A stretch of DNA of 62,447 nt, filler included, from Convolutriloba macropyga (Eukaryota): assembly GCF_964194025.1 (NCBI RefSeq). It is 4 parts of 4 records of this genome, joined end to end, with 100 filler letters (N's around TTAATTAATTAA, not from the genome) between each part and the next. Parts side by side here need not be neighbours in the genome. Positions count along the whole stretch, not along the records: positions 1 to 13,102 come from NC_134468.1; 3 more parts are not named here. One strand, written 5' to 3'. Positions 1-9,402 of this stretch are shown here, in pieces. The notes beneath the pieces are model-generated. The model did not search any database. It was not told where the DNA came from and saw only the letters and a list, made by a program, of their open reading frames with translations. The translations under genes were made by a program, and so were the position numbers. How positions within the stretch are numbered: the first letter of the stretch is position 1; each line of letters starts with the position of its first letter.

Positions 1-806
1 TTCCTGAGTCGCTCTTCTATATGATTACTACAGCTCATGTCATCTTTGATGTGAATTCCCAAGTTTTATACTGTATCGGCATTTGCCAAATCGATAACCA
101 CAATATCGAAATTTTGCCTTTTCCCTCTAAATGTTATCTGAGCACATTTGTCCAGTACCAGCTCCATCTTGTTTTATCTGACCTACGTTGAAACGCTGTT
201 TAGGTCTTCCTGGATTGTCCAATGATCTTTTCCGATCGCGAGGATTTTCAGGTCGTCTGCAAAGATGAATGGGTCTGAGAACTTCAGCGCGTCGGGTAAA
301 TCGATGATGAAGATGCAAAACAGGAGCGGCTCTAATACTGAGCCCTGAGGTACTCCACTACTAATTTTTCGATCATCGGAACATGTGTTATCGATTCTGA
401 CGAACTGTAGCCGGTTGCTTAGGTAGTCCATGAGAACTTGCAGGAGACATCCTCCTACCCCAATATTTGCAACCTTTATTTAATAGCTCGAAATGTGATA
501 CTTTATCGAAGGCTCTCGAGAAGTCCGTGTAGAACGCAAAAACTTCTGAGTTTGGATTGTTATCAAGTGCGTCGTGGATCTTTTTCAGGAAAGTAATCAA
601 GTTTGTAAAAACAGATCAATTTTTAACAAAACCATGTTGGTGCTCTGTCAAGAAAAAGGCAAAGTGGTCGTAAAGAGCCACGTAGATGCACTTTTCCAGG
701 ATTTTACTTTCTATGTCCAGTAGGGACACTGGACGGTAGTTTTGTACGCAGCGTTTCTCTCCCTTCTTGTGGATTGGCGTCACAGCGGCTGTCTTCGATG
801 TATCAG
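1..806 (-). mobile_element. Decayed non-LTR retrotransposon (CR1/L2 group) ORF2, reverse transcriptase region; frameshifted; runs off the window start
   Basis: Consecutive minus-strand ORFs give VTPIHKKG-NYRPVSLL-QHGF (616-825), YTDFSRAFDKVSH (388-600) and SGVPQGSVLEPLLF-FADDLK (183-431), followed by NKMELVLDKC and NLGIHIKDDMS below 183. These are non-LTR RT motifs in native order. Confidence 0.93.
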
Positions 807-1598
807 TATTCTCCCCCCACTCCATGTTTTTATGACTCCCAATTAAAATTTATGGGTTTGTATATAGCACATTATTATGTAAAATTCTAAAATGCGATAC
901 AATGTTATGCCCACTAGGCTGAGCCGGAGCAGAAGAGATCCAAAATATATTGACAAATAGATATAAACGATTTCAAGTAAGTGATACTTTTTCCCTGGAG
1001 CAAAATTCAGCAAGAGGAGCCCCAGGGAAGTGTGCTCAGGCCTTCACTCTTTTATATGTATTTAACGATCTCAAAAAACAACTTCGAATCGCAATGCGAA
1101 ACGTACAATTTTCTCACAATTGCCTGTTATACTCGGATAATATTGTTGGTTATCAAAGCAAAAACGATTTGAGCAAAACTCCCACTAAAGACATGTAATA
1201 TACCAGTGGTACTGTTTCTTTTGATGCCCGTTTATATAATGGCAGAGGATGAGCTCCGCAGTATCTTCGTACACAGGGATGCTTGGGCTGACTCTATCTA
1301 CTTCTTGTTCATAAAACTGATTATAGTGAGTTTACAATCCTTAATTATTTACTTAGATAACGATATAAATTCTCGCTTCTAACGAAGCAACTCTTGGGTA
1401 CAAGCAATTTCCGTTGTTCTGAATGGTATTATAAATAACATTTACGTTATATAAAGGATAGAATACCTTCACATTATGTAAAGTTTAAAATTTCTTCACA
1501 TTATTGTGTGATAACTGTTGTGATAAACATGAATAGCAGTTTTTTAAAAGACCGGAAATCTGGACTGCATAGCCTATGGCGTTTTCATTGAAGAATTT

Positions 1599-2222
1599 TT
1601 GAGGCCGGCACATACGGTCTACCTCGTAGGTGCGAGCTCTCTGAAGCACATCATCGACTGCATCCCATACGACCAACGACGACATCTGTTTCGCAGAATT
1701 TATTCAATGACTGGATTGAGCTTCAAACCCAACGCAGTCAACAAATTGAAGATCTTGCAAAATCATTTGACAAGAAGAAATGTACTTGCCAAGAAGCAGA
1801 AAATCATCATCTGGCACGACGTAATCAATAGAACAATCTCCAAACATTGAAGCAACAGCAACACGTTTTGTTCAACCGAAGAACTGAAAGAGATCCTCAG
1901 AACTTTCAGTGATAGAATAGGAGCATTAATATACCTCAGAGAGGGAACTATCCATATCTGGGATAAGTTTATCAAAACAAGATTTCCAATAGTCGACGTG
2001 ACGAAGAAGCCGCTGTCCCACAGAAAGCAGAAAGACCTGAAGATCCTGAAGGACGTCGATCAAGTACACCGATCCTTTGATCTTGAGGAGCGTCTATTGA
2101 AAACAGTGTGAAAGAAGCGAAACCTACTCTCTCAAGTCGTGAAAAGAAGAAACGAAAGAAAAACAAGCTCTCCCAGAAGGAGACACGCAAGAAACAAAGG
2201 AAACAACAGCAGCCATAGGTGA
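1599..2222 (+). pseudogene. SGNH/GDSL-hydrolase-like reading frame (208 codons, two internal TGA), copy 1
   Basis: One frame reads VYLVGASSL (block I-like), IIIWHDVIN (block III position) and DVDQVHRS (block V position; copy 3 reads AQLHPS), then a basic tail. Confidence 0.6.
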
Positions 2223-2282
2223 TTCAGTATTGCTTTCGCTTTTCTCTCTCTGAGCTTATTTCTTTCAAGACCTCTTTTAGTT

Positions 2283-2504
2283 GGAGGGGGCTATGTTCAC
2301 TGTAGGATCCCCTAGCCTCGGGTGCTACCATTTCTATGTGCCTTCGGGACCTTCTTTGGCTAGAAAGGGCTGAGAAATAAAGGTAGCGAGAGTTAATTTC
2401 CTCAGAAACCGCTCTAGCTTAGTGCCTTCAAGACCTTTGCTGGTTGGAAGCGAAAAGCAGTTTCATCTATACTTCGCTCTATTTTACTCTATATTATACT
2501 CTAT
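2283..2504 (+). mobile_element. Polypurine tract followed by the start of a putative 3' LTR (truncated); copies at ~5115-5336 and ~7950-8171
   Basis: GGAGGGGG-CTA-TGTTCACTGT at 2283-2303 (AAAGGGGG-CTA-TGT in copy 3) lies ~60 bp after the ORF stop, with AATAAA at ~2376. A PPT followed by TG is the standard 3' LTR boundary of LTR retroelements. No matching 5' LTR is in the window. Confidence 0.55.
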
Positions 2505-2645
2505 ATAGGAAAGAAACTACTGCGAGACCCAACAAGCTTAGAACCAACTGCTCTGAACAACAAGCTTGAGATAATAGAGAAAGCCATTGCTGAGAACCAT
2601 GCATCTGCAGCCAACATACAGAGAAGCCTGAAATTGGAATATGAA
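2505..2645 (+). mobile_element. 141-bp copy of ORF1 of the neighbouring LINE family (matches 9452-9592); also in units 2 and 3
   Basis: ATAG(G/A)AAAGAAACTACTGCGAGACCCAAC...GAAATTGGAAT(A/T)TGAA aligns without gaps to 9452-9592. Confidence 0.9.
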
Positions 2646-3254
2646 AAGTAAAGGGTGTAAAAGTCACTCGAAAATTCAAAATTGTCAGGCGATAATTTTG
2701 CATACACACTATTTTAATATTTGCTGTGAACTGCGTTCAGGAGCAATTAAAAAGCGCACTCCCTACATTCATAATTATTTGAATTTGACATTTAAACAGA
2801 ACTCTTCTCCTCTAGACAGGATACAACTGACAATACTGCATAATAACTAAAGCCCTGTAAACTTCAAAGAAAACATAAATTAGAAAACAAATCCTACTTC
2901 ACGCGCTTTATCTAAAAAATGGAAGTATTTGAGATCCACCCGGTAGAACAAAAATCTTAAAATAACAAGAAATCGACGAACGCCGAGCAGATTACTCTCC
3001 AACCAACGACGAGCAGTTGTCATAGGTAGCAGCCAACTGGGGCTTAGGAATGCTAGCACGGGAGTTGAATAAAGCTTCAATTTTTCTGGTCTTTAGGTTG
3101 TCGTCTGGACCAGCTCTTCAGTAGTGGCGTCGTCCACGCGAAATTGACAGTCTGTTCGCAGGTATAATAAGTCGGAAAGAATCCAAATTAACCTTTAGGT
3201 GGGCAATTAAATACTCTTATACCTGTAATTGCTCCTCATCTAATATATACTTTT

Positions 3255-3905
3255 AATTAAATCTTTAGAGTCTTTTCCAGGCTCATTGAAAATTGCAAAT
3301 GTTACTCCTTTATTAAAAAAATGATCCTCTAACTGTTATTAAATACGGACCTAGTGCAATAAAAAGGTTTTTCTAAAATCTTCGAAAACATACTGCGTGA
3401 GCAAATTTCAGTATCATAAAAACGAATGAACATTTGGGATTCAGGAAGAAATTTTCAATTAATATTTCGACTTATTATCACCGCTTCGATTCGGACATGA
3501 AACTTTAGGCTGCTCTACTAGACCCATCAAAAGCTTTCGATTTGAATTTTTCTTCAAAAACCCTTACGGAAATTGGAAAAATTGCTTTAGTAGGTCAGCA
3601 TTGCTTGTTATTGAAATTTTGTAATTGGTAACTAATCTATTCTGCCCACCCACTCCACTGTTTTTATGATTTCCAATTACAAATTATGGGTTTGTATATA
3701 GCACGTTGTTATAAAAATTTTAAAATGCGATACAGTGTTATGCCCACTAGGCTGAGCTGGAGCAAAAGAGATCCAAAATATATTGACAAATAGATATCAA
3801 CGAGTTCAAGTAAGTGATACTTTTTCTCTGGAGCAAAGTTCAGCAAAAAGTGCCCCAGGGACGTGTGTTCAGGACTTTAGTCTTTTATCTGTATTTAACG
3901 GTCTC
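3255..3905 (+). mobile_element. Heavily decayed LINE RT fragment spanning the unit junction (also 940-1075, ~6100-6750, ~8960-9330)
   Basis: Translated remnants FPGSLKIANVTPLLKK, FSKIFENIL, FGFRKKFS, LLDPSKAFD, then LTNRYQRVQV and VPQG(S/R)V. Confidence 0.75.
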
Positions 3906-4430
3906 AAAAAACAACTTCGAATCGCAATGCGAAACGTACAATATTCTCACAACTGCCTGTTATACTCGGATAATATTGTTGGTTATCAAAGCAAAAACGA
4001 TTTGTGCAAAACTCCCACTAAAGACTTGTAATATACCAGTGGTACTGTTTCTTTTGATGCCCGTTTATATAATGGCAGAGGATGAGCTCCGCAGTATCTT
4101 CGTACACAGGGATGCTTGAGCTGACTCTATCTACTTCTTGTTCATAAAACTGATTATAGTGAGTTTACAATCCTTAATTATTTACTTAGATAACGACATA
4201 AATTCTCGCTTCTAACGAAGCAACTCTTGGGTACAAGCAATTTCCGTTGTTCTAAATGGTATTATAAATAACATTTACGTTATATAAAGGATAGAATACC
4301 TTCACATTATGTAAAGTTTAAAATTCCTTCACATTATTGTGTGATAACTGTTGTGATAAACATGAATAGGAGTTTTTAAAAGACCGGAAATCTGGACTGC
4401 ATAGCCTATAGCGTTTTCATTGAAGAATTT

Positions 4431-5054
4431 TTGAGGCCGGCACATACGGTCTACCTCGTAGGTGCGAGCTCTCTGAAGCACATCATCGACTGCATCCCAT
4501 ACGACCAACGACGACATCTGTTTCGCAGAATTTATTCAATGACTGGATTGAGCTTCAAACCCAACGCAGTCAACAAATTGAAGATCTTGCAAAATCATTT
4601 GACAAGAAGAAATGTACTTGCCAGGAAGCAGAAAATCATCATCTGGCACGACGTAATCAATAGAACAATCTCCAAACATTGAAGCAACTGCAACACGTTT
4701 TGTTCAACCGAAGAACTGAAAGAGATCCTCAGAACTTTCAGTGATAGAATAGGAGCATTAATATACCTCAGAGAGGGAACTATCCATATCTGGGATAAGT
4801 TTATCAAAACAAGATTTCCAATAGTCGACGTGACGAAGAAGCCGCTGTCCCACAGAAAGCAGAAAGACCTGAAGATCCTGAAGGACGTCGATCAAGTACA
4901 CCGATCCTTTGATCTTGAGGAGCGTCTATTGAAAACAGTGTGAAAGAAGCGAAACCTACTCTCTCAAGTCGTGAAAAGAAGAAACGAAAGAAAAACAAGC
5001 TCTCCCAGAAGGAGACACGCAAGAAACAAAGGAAACAACAGCAGCCATAGGTGA
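4431..5054 (+). pseudogene. SGNH/GDSL-hydrolase-like reading frame, copy 2
   Basis: Near-identical to 1599-2222 at offset 2832. Confidence 0.6.
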
Positions 5055-7273
5055 TTCAGTATTGCTTTCGCTTTTCTCTCTCTGAGCTTATTTCTTTCAA
5101 GACCTCTTTTAGTTGGAGGGGGCTATGTTCACTGTAGGATCCCCTAGCCTTGGGTGCTACCATTTCTATGTGCCTTCGGGACCTTCTTTGGCTAGAAAGG
5201 GCTGAGAAATAAAGGTAGCGAGAGTTAATTTCCTCAGAAACCGCTCTAGCTTAGTGCCTTCAAGACCTTTGCTGGTTGGAAGCGAAAAGCAGTTTCATCT
5301 ATACTTCGCTCTATTTTACTCTATATTATACTCTATATAGGAAAGAAACTACTGCGAGACCCAACAAGCTTAGAACCAACTGCTCTGAACAACAAGCTTG
5401 AGATAATAGAGAAAGCCATTGCTGAGAACCATGCATCTGCAGCCAACATACAGAGAAGCCTGAAATTGGAATATGAAAAGTAAAGGGTGTAAAAGTCACT
5501 CGAAAATTCAAAATTGTCAGGCGATAATTTTGCATAAAAAAGACACACACGTTTTTAATAATTGCTTTGAACTGCGTTCAGGAGCAATTAAAAAGCGCAC
5601 TCCCCACATTCATAATTATTTGAATTTGACAATTAAACCGAACTCTTCTCCTCTAGACAGGATACAACTGGCAATACTGCATAATAACTAAAGCCCTGTA
5701 ATCTTCAAAGAAAACATAAATTAGAAAACAAATCCTACTTCACGCGCTTTATCTAAAAAATGGAAGTATTTGAGATCCACCCGGTAGAACAAAAATCTTA
5801 AATTAACAAGAAATTGACGAAAGCCGAGCAGATTGCTCTCCAACCATTGACGAGCAGTTGTCATAGGTAGCAGCCAGCTGGGGCATAGGAATGCTAGCAC
5901 GGGAGTTGAATAAAGCTTCAATTTTTCTGCTCTTTAGGTTGTCGTCTGGACCAGCTCTTCAGTAGTGGCGTCGTCCACGCGAAATTGACAGTCTGTTCGC
6001 AGGTATAAAAAGTCGGAAAGAATCCAAATTAACCTTTAGGTGGGCAATTAAATACTCTTATGCCTGTAATTGCTCCTCATCTAACATATACTTTTAATTA
6101 AATCTTTAGAGTCTTTTTCCAGGCTCATTGAAAATTGCAAATGTTACTCCTTTATTAAAAAAAATGATCATCTAAATGTTATTAAACACGGACCTAGTGC
6201 AATAAAAAGGTTTTTCTAAAATCTTCGAAAACATACTGCGTGAGCAAATTTCAGTGTCATAAAAACGAATGAACATTTGGGATTCAGGAAGAAATTTTCA
6301 ATTAATATTTCGACTTATTATCACCGCTTCGATTCGGACATGAAACTTTAGGCTGCTCTACTAGACCCATCAAAAGCTTTCGATTTGAATTTTTCTTCAA
6401 AAACCCTTACGAAAATTGGAAAAATTGCTTTAGTAGGTCAGCATTGCTTGTTATTGAAATTTTGTAATTGGTAACTAATCTATTCTGCCCACCCACTCCA
6501 CTGTTTTTATGATTTCCAATTACAAATTATGGGTTTGTATATAGCACGTTGTTATAAAAATTTTAAAATGCGATACAGTGTTATGCCCACTAGGCTGAGC
6601 TGGAGCAAAAGAGATCCAAAATATATTGACAAATAGATATCAACGAGTTCAAGTAAGTGATACTTTTTCTCTGGAGCAAAGTTCAGCAAAAAGTGCCCCA
6701 GGGACGTGTGTTCAGGACTTTAGTCTTTTATCTGTATTTAACGGTCTCAAAAAACAACTTCGAATCGCAATGCGAAACGTACAATATTCTCACAACTGCC
6801 TGTTATACTCGGATAATATTGTTGGTTATCAAAGCAAAAACGATTTGTGCAAAACTCCCACTAAAGACTTGTAATATACCAGTGGTACTGTTTCTTTTGA
6901 TGCCCGTTTATATAATGGCAGAGGATGAGCTCCGCAGTATCTTCGTACACAGGGATGCTTGGGCTGACTCTATCTACTTTTTGTTCATAAAACTGAGTAT
7001 AGTGAGTTTACAATCTTTAATTATTTACTTAAATAACAATATAAATTCTCGCTTCTAACGAAGCAACTTTTGGGTGCAAGCAATTTCCGTTGTTCTGAAT
7101 GTTAATATAAATATTGTTTACGTTATATAAAGGATAGAAATCCTTCACATTATGTAAAGGGTAAAATTCCTTCACTTTATTGTGCGATAATTGTTGTTTT
7201 GAACTTAAATAGGAGTTCTGAAAAGACCGGAAATCTGGACTGCATAGCCTTTAGCGTTTTCATTGAAAAATTT

Positions 7274-7889
7274 TCAAGGCCGGCACATATGGTCTACCTC
7301 GTAGATGCGAGCTCTCTGAACCACACCTTCAACTGCATCCCGTACGACCAACGACGACATCTGTTTCGTAGAAGTTATTCAATTACTGGATTGAGCTTCA
7401 AACCCAATGCAGTCAACAGGTTGAAGATCTTGCAGAATCTTTTGACAGGAAGAAGTGTACATGCCAAGAAGCAGAAAATCATCATCTGGCTCGACGTAGT
7501 CAATAATACAATCTCCTAACATTGAAGCAACAGAAACACGGTTTATTTAACCGAAGAACTGAAAGAGATCCTCAGAAATTTAGTGATAGAATAGAAGCAA
7601 TAATATAATTCAGAAAGGAGGGAACTATCGATATCAGGGATACGTTTATCGAAACAAGAATTCCAAGAGTCGACGTGAAGAAGAAGCCGCTGTCCCACAG
7701 AAAGCAGAAAGACCTGAAGGACGTCGCTCAATTACACCCATCCTTTGATCTTGAGGAGCGTCTATTGAAAACAGTGTGAAGAAAACGAAACCTACTCTCT
7801 CAATTCGTGAAAAGAAGAAACGGAAAAAAACAAGCTCTCCCAGAAGGAGACACGCAAGAAACAAAGGAAACAACAGCAGCCATAGGTGA
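7274..7889 (+). pseudogene. SGNH/GDSL-hydrolase-like reading frame, copy 3 (more diverged)
   Basis: Contains VYLVDASSL, IIIWLDVVNN and LKDVAQLHPSFDLEE, with extra stops and indels. Confidence 0.58.
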
Positions 7890-8654
7890 TTTAGTATTGC
7901 TTTCGCTGTTCTTTCTCTGAGCTTATTTCCTTCTTGACCTTCTTTAGTTAAAGGGGGCTATGTTCACTGTAGGATCCCCTAGCCTCGGGTACTACTATTT
8001 CTATGTGCCTTCGGGGCCTTTTTTGGCTAGAAAGGGCTGAGAAATAAAGGTAGCGAGAGTTATATTCCTCAGAAACCGCTCTAGCTTAGTTCCTTTAAGA
8101 CCTTTGCTGGTTGGAAGCGAAAAGCAGTTTCATCTATTCTTCGCTCTATTTTACTCTATATTATACTCTATATAGGAAAGAAACTACTGCAAGACTGAAC
8201 ATGCTTAGAACCAACTGCTCTTAACAACAAGTTTGAGATAATAGAAAAAGCCATTGCTGAGAACCATGCATCCGCAGCAAACATACAGAGAGTCCTGCAA
8301 TGGGAATTTGAAAAGTCAAGAGTGTAAAAATCACTCGAAAAGTCAAAATTGTCAAGCGAAAATTTTGCATAAAAAAGATACAAACGTTTTTGATAATTGC
8401 TGTGAACTGCGTTCAAGAGCAATTAAAAAGCGAACTCCCTACATTCATAATTATTTGAATTTGATAATTAAAACTAACTCTTCTTCTCTAGACAGGATAT
8501 TACAGGCAATACCGCATAATACCAAAATCCCTGTAAGGTTCAAAAAACATAAATTAGAAAACAAATCCTACTTCGCGCGCTTTATATAAAAAATGAAAGT
8601 ATTTGAAATCCACCAAATAGAAGAAAAATGTTAAAAAACAAGAAATCGACTAAA

Positions 8655-8895
8655 ACCGAGCCGATACCTCTCAAACCGCCGACCGACGAGCAGCTGGCAT
8701 CGGTAGCAGCCAGCTGGGTCTTAGGAATGCTAGCACGGGAGTTGAATACAGCTTCCATTTTTCTGGTCTTTAGGTTGTCCTCTGGACCAACTCTTCAATA
8801 GTGGCGTCGTCCACGCGCCATTGACAATCTGTTGGTTGGTATAATAAGTCGGAAAGAATCCAAATGAACCTTTAGGTCCACGCACAGTTCCTTAC
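8655..8895 (-). pseudogene. Possible C-type lectin domain C-terminal remnant (copies ~2980-3200 and ~5820-6040)
   Basis: Minus strand reads KSWSRGQPKDQKNGSCIQL, then after a 1-nt shift RASIPKTQLAATDASCSS, and ICS in units 1 and 2. This resembles the W-x2-GQP...C...D-x2-C...IC spacing of C-type lectin domains. Confidence 0.38.
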
Positions 8896-9402
8896 TGGGC
8901 AATTAATTACTCTTATACCTGTATTTGCTCCTCATCTAACATATACTTTTATTGAAATCTTAAGAGTCTTTTTCCAGGCTCATTGAAAATTGCAAATGTT
9001 ACTCCTTCATTAAAAAAGGATCCTCTAAATGTTATTAAAAACAGACCTAATGCAAAAAAAAGTTTTTCTAAAATCTTCGAAAACATACTGCGTGAGCAAA
9101 TTTCAGTGTCATAAAAACGAATGAACACTTGGGATTCAGGAAGAAATTTTCAATTAATGTTTCGACTTATTATCACCGCATCGATTCGGACATAAAACTT
9201 CAGGCTGCTCTACCAGGCATATCAAATGCTTTCGATTCTAATTTTTCTTCAAAAACCCTTACGGAAATTGGAAAGATTGCTTTTGTAGGTCAGCATTGCT
9301 TGTTAAGGAAATTTTGTAATTGGTAACTAATCTATTCTGCCCCCCCACTCCAATGCTTTTATGACTCCCAATTACAAATTATGGTTTTGTATATAGCACG
9401 GG

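Follow-up and report, generated by a model that had tools for sequence, protein, structure and literature searches.

The window analysed here comprises 62,447 nucleotides of repeat-rich DNA, animal-like in its LINE content, from Convolutriloba macropyga (assembly GCF_964194025.1), with four parts joined end to end by filler and positions 1–13,102 taken from record NC_134468.1. The three tandem copies of an ORF described in the original prediction are confirmed by self-BLAST, which places them in units of ∼2.83 kb across positions 807–9400 (Table 1). The remnant of a LINE reverse transcriptase (RT) at the start of the array continues the sequence at ∼3270–3637 of the preceding unit. Two very high-copy small repeats (1220–1440 and 2644–2704) lie within the tandem unit, the first of which is likely to be the 3′ end of a LINE or SINE. 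Elsewhere in the window, positions 28000–48500 contain long higher-order tandem arrays that consist in part of decayed LINE RT pieces, and positions 51939–60417 hold a 4.24-kb tandem duplication with 99.9% identity that is either recent or an assembly artefact.

Table 1. Features at and around the tandem array, in window coordinates.
Feature	Position	Strand	Evidence or remark
Tandem array, three ∼2.83-kb units and 64 bp of a fourth	807–9400	+	self-BLAST 94% and 90%
LINE RT remnant, heavily decayed, other family	807–1210	+	RT motifs by eye; best tblastn E 0.019
High-copy repeat between RT remnant and SGNH ORF	1220–1440	.	contig depth 3,600–6,350, against ∼450 alongside
Predicted SGNH-fold ORF (ORF0), copy 1, broken	1614–2218	+	tblastn 56% over 201 aa to intact relative P0004
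Non-coding spacer, 286 bp (earlier read as PPT and LTR)	2219–2504	+	within the window, found only in the three tandem units
Supposed PPT, a purine tract that closes repeat 1 and forms the 3′ side of a predicted weak hairpin	2283–2290	+	
LINE ORF1 fragment, coiled-coil region just past the PHD-like finger	2505–2645	+	93.6% to 9452–9592
Very high-copy small repeat interrupting the ORF1 fragment	2644–2704	.	contig depth >100,000, many loose ends
Copy 2, SGNH ORF (4446–5050) and spacer	4446–5336	+	
Copy 3, SGNH ORF (7289–7885) and spacer	7289–8171	+	further stop, indels in ORF
Decayed 5′-truncated LINE: end of PHD-like finger, ORF1, APE-RT ORF2, Cys-rich C-terminus	9401–13100	+	

The motifs LVGASSL and IIIWHDVIN lie in frame at 1599–2222, and AQLHPS is found in copy 3, as originally described. 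The frame itself, given as an open one of 208 codons, is interrupted by stops at 1848 and 2109 in all three copies, and copies 1 and 2 lack a start codon. A basic tail is present, but the tail that matches the family is in another frame, running by eye from ∼2140 to a TAG at 2216–2218, with the copy 1 frameshift near 2140 likewise placed by eye. Copy 1 aligns with the family over 195 columns (hhalign probability 100). The damage to the ORF is mostly older than the tandem duplication, and the window copy is a dead fragment. Stop-codon readthrough or an alternative code was rejected, since the standard code gives open frames in the relatives and copy 3 carries both indels and an additional TAA. 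A Cys-rich reading just 5′ of the ORF was at first taken for the end of an ORF2, an idea dropped as unsupported. Contigs from public runs of the same organism contain other copies that are ∼88–90% identical over the ORF and spacer. The sequence thus belongs to a multi-copy family, though some of these contigs may represent alleles or the source data.

Read with X at the stop positions, the window frame returned four proteins, one being the window's own record and another, P0004, an intact relative of 202 aa that is 56% identical to it. A profile search collected a family of basic proteins of ∼200 aa in 539 clusters at E ≤ 0.001, the full-length matches being mostly ∼190–230 aa long; a second search gave 314 proteins, with one cluster of 432 members. 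Seven close relatives have isoelectric points of 10.2–11.1, with 13–19 Lys/Arg among the last 35 residues. An AlphaFold2 model was built for the relative P0004, not for the window copy, on a 92-row alignment (pLDDT 96, pTM 0.88) and displays the three-layer α/β arrangement of the SGNH fold. The check suggested by the original prediction, structure prediction followed by Foldseek, was run on this intact relative and found SGNH/GDSL hydrolases: each of the five Foldseek matches within E ≤ 0.001 is a GDSL lipase or an acylhydrolase. A wide structural search was led by OatA (Z 11.3, r.m.s.d. 3.1, 140 residues aligned), with 3p94 (Z 10.9, r.m.s.d. 3.4 over 153) and other SGNH enzymes also among the leading matches, and an Atlas match scored 0.91, with Lipase_GDSL_2 on 23% of its members. 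The SGNH fold originally proposed is supported by these results, and the window ORF is accordingly one that is predicted, through the model of its relative, to have an SGNH esterase fold. The ZfL2-1 esterase is not among the fold matches listed, which excludes nothing. Pfam had no match to the window reading, no relevant one to three homologs and none to a GDSL family among 92 members, so the family is invisible to routine annotation; a PDB sequence search gave only matches with E of at least 0.7. No longer fused forms were present among 7995 candidates of 488–2000 aa, which is weak evidence.

The SGNH blocks were assigned from secondary structure and residue spacing without superposing structures, with residues numbered as in P0004 and columns counted over the 92 alignment rows. 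The block I serine (Ser8) is kept in 83 rows, the block II glycine (Gly34) in 85, the block III asparagine (Asn72) in 71 and the block V histidine (His153) in 84, with all four together in 54; His68 (84 rows), Asp69 (86) and His78 (83) are also well kept. A loss of the catalytic blocks is only partly borne out. It holds for the acid of the DxxH motif, with Asp or Glu three residues before His153 in five of the 92 rows, but not for the conserved Ser, Gly, Asn and His; a D-x-x-H sequence (DQVH) does exist in copies 1 and 2, yet its acid is not conserved in the family. Judging by the alignment columns, Asp69 or Glu159 (Asp or Glu in 81 rows) may act as a stand-in acid, if there is one. The spacing Ser8–Gly34–His68–Asn72–His153 parallels Ser143–Gly165–His191–Asn195–His282 of ZfL2-1, mapped by spacing and not by superposition, in which His191 is a transposon-specific residue according to the available part of PMC3905857. 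From the conserved columns and this parallel spacing, we infer that the protein is more likely to be a Ser–His esterase whose acid is missing or displaced than an inactive enzyme.

A metagenome locus scan yielded 18 related loci, those with context being ∼28–43% identical to P0004; scans with the window reading (metagenomes), the alignment (viral contigs) and P0004 (prokaryote genomes) gave none. A LINE ORF1 lies directly downstream on the same strand in nine of the 18 (L001, L005, L006, L007, L009, L010, L011, L013 and L014), behind ORF0–ORF1 spacers of ∼80–260 nt. As L006/L007 and L011/L014 are 99% identical, these nine loci represent seven distinct elements. Matches of their ORF1 to PHD or C1 are below Pfam's cut-off, and the start of ORF2 in L005, L007 and L014 was located by eye or by tblastx only. 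Two loci, L001 and L009, are complete and contain the SGNH ORF, an ORF1 with a Cys-rich finger and an ORF2 with endonuclease and RVT_1 (E 9e-32 and 5e-35, respectively); L010 and L013 extend as far as an endonuclease match. The complete elements end in a microsatellite tail without an LTR, (TAT)n in L001 and (CAA)n in L009, and no SGNH ORF follows these tails, so the SGNH ORF is fixed at the 5′ end. We take these LINEs to belong to the CR1 group, a label derived from their PHD-type ORF1 and general knowledge.

No LINE ORF1 is visible downstream in the other nine loci. Four of them (L003, L008, L015 and L018) are cut or broken, and L002, L003, L012, L015 and L018 provide no usable context, the ORF in L002 and L012 being followed only by non-coding DNA for 400–530 nt. 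In L004 the SGNH ORF precedes an ORF whose gag-like character comes only from an Atlas lead (score 0.80; 31% of members carry DUF1759) and suggests a BEL-like element; if confirmed, L004 would be an LTR element carrying an esterase ahead of gag. L008 is a cut relative of L004, and a PBS-like TGG motif 5′ of the SGNH ORF is common to both (L004 1046–2878, L008 589–1546). Divergent members in L016 (2–4208) and L017 (2–1766) directly follow Helitron-like PIF1/GIY-YIG or GIY-YIG ORFs. A quick tree was calculated from 32 database proteins and 14 of the 18 loci; L018 is broken and L007, L014 and L015 are near duplicates, and these four were omitted. The window copy groups in it with P0004, P0005, P0009 and P0012 (support 95), which are its nearest proteins and have no genomic context, with L004/L008 and L016/L017 on separate branches of their own, also well supported. 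The sequence TTAAATAG occurs once per locus, 54–223 nt before the SGNH start, in five of 14 loci (L003, L006, L009, L010 and L011) and also in window copy 3 at ∼7207; shuffling gives an expectation of 0.1 loci for this motif, which was picked after being seen. It may be a core promoter or mark the 5′ end. Just upstream, TTGTTGTGATAAAC is common to L006 and window copies 1 and 2.

In the window, the spacer runs directly into 141 bp of LINE ORF1 that lacks the PHD-like finger and is 93.6% identical to the ORF1 of the decayed LINE at 9401–13100. Since the spacer–ORF1 junction is without the PHD region, the link between ORF0 and ORF1 is one drawn across a deletion. The ORF1 of the 9401–13100 LINE matches that of L007 (E 2e-12), none of the seven ORF1s otherwise falling below E 0.04; its ORF2 matches those of L001 and L009 (tblastn E 7e-59 and 3e-73, respectively) and has a Pfam endonuclease match (E 3e-5). 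The end of this LINE is approximate, as it meets an assembly gap; at this gap (∼13100–13200), which directly follows the LINE 3′ end, two N runs flank a short linker of the TTAATTAA type. An ORF2 with APE and RT is found downstream on the same strand in L001, L009 and the 9401–13100 LINE and not within the deleted unit of the window, where only an ORF1 fragment, and not a full ORF1–ORF2, follows the SGNH ORF. The RT remnant at 807–1210 has no DNA match to the ORF2 of the 9401–13100 LINE. A further LINE RT fragment on the minus strand at 1–816 is 55–63% identical to the ORF2 of L009.

The window contains a dead, tandem-triplicated piece of a mobile element. We consider it probable that its SGNH ORF is the front gene (ORF0) of a LINE with three ORFs and that what was taken for a PPT and LTR is the ORF0–ORF1 spacer. 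This reading draws on the fold match of the relative, the Ser, Gly, Asn and His columns, the ORF0–ORF1–ORF2 order and the adjoining ORF1 fragment; against it stand the want of a close relative with context, the non-native junction at 2504/2505, the nine loci with no visible LINE ORF1 downstream, among them L004 and L016/L017 on other elements, the spacers that have no repeats, and the incomplete conservation of the four catalytic columns with no DxxH acid. The window copy would have arisen by deletion of the PHD part of ORF1 followed by insertion of the small repeat, and the damaged unit would then have been duplicated in tandem together with the flanking older RT remnant. A retrotransposon origin, as first proposed, is retained. 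The placement of the ORF at the env position of an LTR element is not supported, because the related loci carry it upstream of LINE ORF1 and APE-RT ORF2. That order had been named in advance as one that would speak for an ordinary LINE ORF1; the order itself is found, but the SGNH ORF is a separate third ORF and not the ordinary ORF1.

The non-native junction and the loci on other elements could also be explained if the esterase were a portable module on another element type, such as a BEL/Pao-like LTR element or a Helitron, with the ORF1 fragment as an unrelated neighbour. L004 carries the ORF before its gag-like ORF and after the PBS-like TGG motif also found in L008, L016/L017 carry it after PIF1 and GIY-YIG, and 2504/2505 is not a natural ORF1 start. 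We nevertheless regard this explanation as unlikely for the window, as L004/L008 and L016/L017 are on other branches than the window copy, the window copies have neither a gag nor a helicase nor a PBS-like motif beside them and the adjoining fragment is of the ORF1 type of an ORF0-headed LINE (L007).

The spacer bears on the remaining alternatives. It contains three imperfect 28-nt repeats (at 2259, 2338 and 2422) and closes with CTCTAT-type short repeats (2461–2504). Two or three direct repeats are also present in the spacers of L001, L006 and L010, and such repeats are absent from those of L005, L009 and L014. In the window, neither the purine-tract hairpin (z −0.36, no better than shuffles) nor the whole spacer (z −0.28) nor its six repeat hairpins (z −0.86 to +0.40) support RNA structure; five of 11 other downstream regions reach z of about −3, and Rfam has no family that matches the spacer RNA. 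Each spacer repeat in L001 (855–1041) and L010 (986–1072) forms a hairpin that scores better than shuffles (z −2.1 to −3.8), unlike those of the window. The short tandem repeats that end the segment, together with the exclusively non-coding downstream DNA of L002 and L012, would fit a complete short non-autonomous SINE-like retroelement, comprising ORF and spacer, moved by a LINE and tailed by the CTCTAT-type repeat. This is improbable: a target-site duplication was not observed, the majority of loci that have downstream sequence run on into ORF1, and the spacer of 286 nt is close in length to the ORF0–ORF1 spacers of the related loci.

The original prediction, in which the SGNH ORF occupies the env position of an LTR retrotransposon and the segment is its 3′ end with a PPT and a 3′ LTR, is very improbable. 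The sequence GGAGGGGG-CTA-TGTTCAC at 2283–2300 and the AATAAA at ∼2376 are present as described, and GDSL ORF3 of bdelloid Vesta elements provides a precedent in the available part of PMC5408684; an SGNH ORF at this position, described as unusual, has already been published. The supposed PPT consists of eight purines 3 nt from TG. Across the window, 159 sites combine a tract of at least eight purines with a TG no more than 3 nt away, and 26 of these have an AATAAA at a distance of up to 150 nt. Five sites, copies 1 and 2 among them, show the stricter G-rich form, which is therefore uncommon but not unique. The purine tract belongs to one of the spacer repeats and is altered to AAAGGGGG in copy 3. 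Within the window, positions 2220–2504 recur only inside the three tandem units, though the segment could be truncated; no paired repeat lies outside these units and no CA is found at the 3′ junction of the spacer. Contig depth in run X1 is 248–507 over the spacer and not above that over the ORF (409–667), but depth does not give copy number and carries no weight here. The DNA 5′ of the window ORF is a LINE-type RT remnant and a high-copy repeat, not LTR pol, and none of the 18 loci has LTR pol upstream on the same strand (many of the loci are short, and seven have >600 nt upstream). A 3′ accessory ORF, either an Ngaro-type hydrolase following a tyrosine recombinase (YR) and followed by split direct repeats (PMC9210276, available part) or an ORF3 of the upstream same-strand RT remnant, can be set aside as barely credible, as the upstream ORFs scanned in the loci include no YR and none was noticed 5′ of the ORF in the window, the repeats here, at 28 nt, fall far below the 152–236 bp of those in Ngaro, the RT remnant is much more decayed than the ORF and set apart by the high-copy repeat, and the complete L001 and L009 have nothing after their tails.

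LINE ORF1p is a nucleic-acid chaperone, and ORF2p combines nicking by APE with target-primed reverse transcription. In an intact three-ORF LINE, a full-length RNA would give ORF0p first and then ORF1p and ORF2p. By analogy with ZfL2-1, the basic surface and Lys/Arg-rich C-terminal helix of ORF0p would bind the element RNA and anionic membranes, and ORF0p may be a weak Ser–His esterase bringing the RNP to membranes, a role proposed for the ZfL2-1 protein (PMC3905857); its acid, if any, would come from Asp69 or Glu159. The spacer repeats would be candidates for promoting translation of ORF1 and ORF2 behind ORF0, although the fold of those in the window is no better than shuffles. For such LINEs it would also have to be explained how a single RNA serves for the translation of three ORFs. 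Intact elements with the esterase and the PHD-ORF1 as separate genes part a membrane-related esterase from the RNA chaperone, so the role of a transposon esterase would be testable by single-ORF deletion. More tentatively, and with the balance of our expectation against it, the leader with TTAAATAG, the stand-alone SGNH ORF with its Ser–His site and basic tail, and the repeat spacer may form a portable cassette that, within a single lineage of invertebrates, is shared by many LINE families and has also reached Helitrons and BEL-like LTR elements. If so, tricistronic LINEs would be common there, and unrelated transposons would share a helper for membrane targeting or cell exit.

To our knowledge, LINEs have been described with one or two ORFs, the esterase-type and PHD-type ORF1 being alternatives. 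The published systems are compared here as they are described in the available parts of the cited papers. An esterase is known as ORF1 of CR1, L2 and RTEX LINEs (PMC3905857, PMC4120745, PMC13343379), with RTEX and Penelope cases listed from cnidarians and sponges (PMC3905857). The esterase of ZfL2-1 hydrolyses pNP-acetate and floats with liposomes (PMC3905857). As in this type IV ORF1, an SGNH fold is predicted here in a LINE upstream of APE-RT, in a strongly basic protein with a Lys/Arg-rich motif and with a histidine four residues before the oxyanion asparagine (His191 in ZfL2-1). Unlike ZfL2-1, the ORF here is a stand-alone one of ∼200 aa ahead of a separate PHD/coiled-coil ORF1, making three ORFs; it has no N-terminal coiled coil, its basic motif lies at the C-terminus, blocks I and III read GAS and WHDxxNN, respectively, and there is no conserved DxxH acid. 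Type IV, defined by an esterase that is ORF1, is fused to a coiled coil or zf/lz and lies directly before ORF2, does not describe this arrangement, and it is given as restricted to vertebrate L2/CR1 subgroups (PMC4120745), whereas the host here is an invertebrate.

Separate accessory ORFs of this fold are also known outside these LINEs. Bdelloid Vesta LTR elements carry a GDSL ORF3, and Athena/Terminon elements carry GDSL ORFs (PMC5408684), so that there, as here, a separate GDSL/SGNH ORF is common to unrelated retroelement types; the Vesta ORF follows pol at the env position, whereas the relatives described here precede ORF1 or a gag-like ORF. Ngaro elements likewise have a separate accessory SGNH ORF, but it follows the YR and is accompanied by long split direct repeats, neither of which is seen here (PMC9210276). 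A platyfish Helitron bears an SGNH gene (PMC4021074), similar to the arrangement suggested for L016/L017; the window copy lies in a different context. In the openly accessible main texts searched, no paper describes an esterase as an ORF of its own in front of a PHD-ORF1. It is this separate ORF0 esterase before a PHD-ORF1 that distinguishes the present elements from the published LINE ORF1 and env-position esterases.
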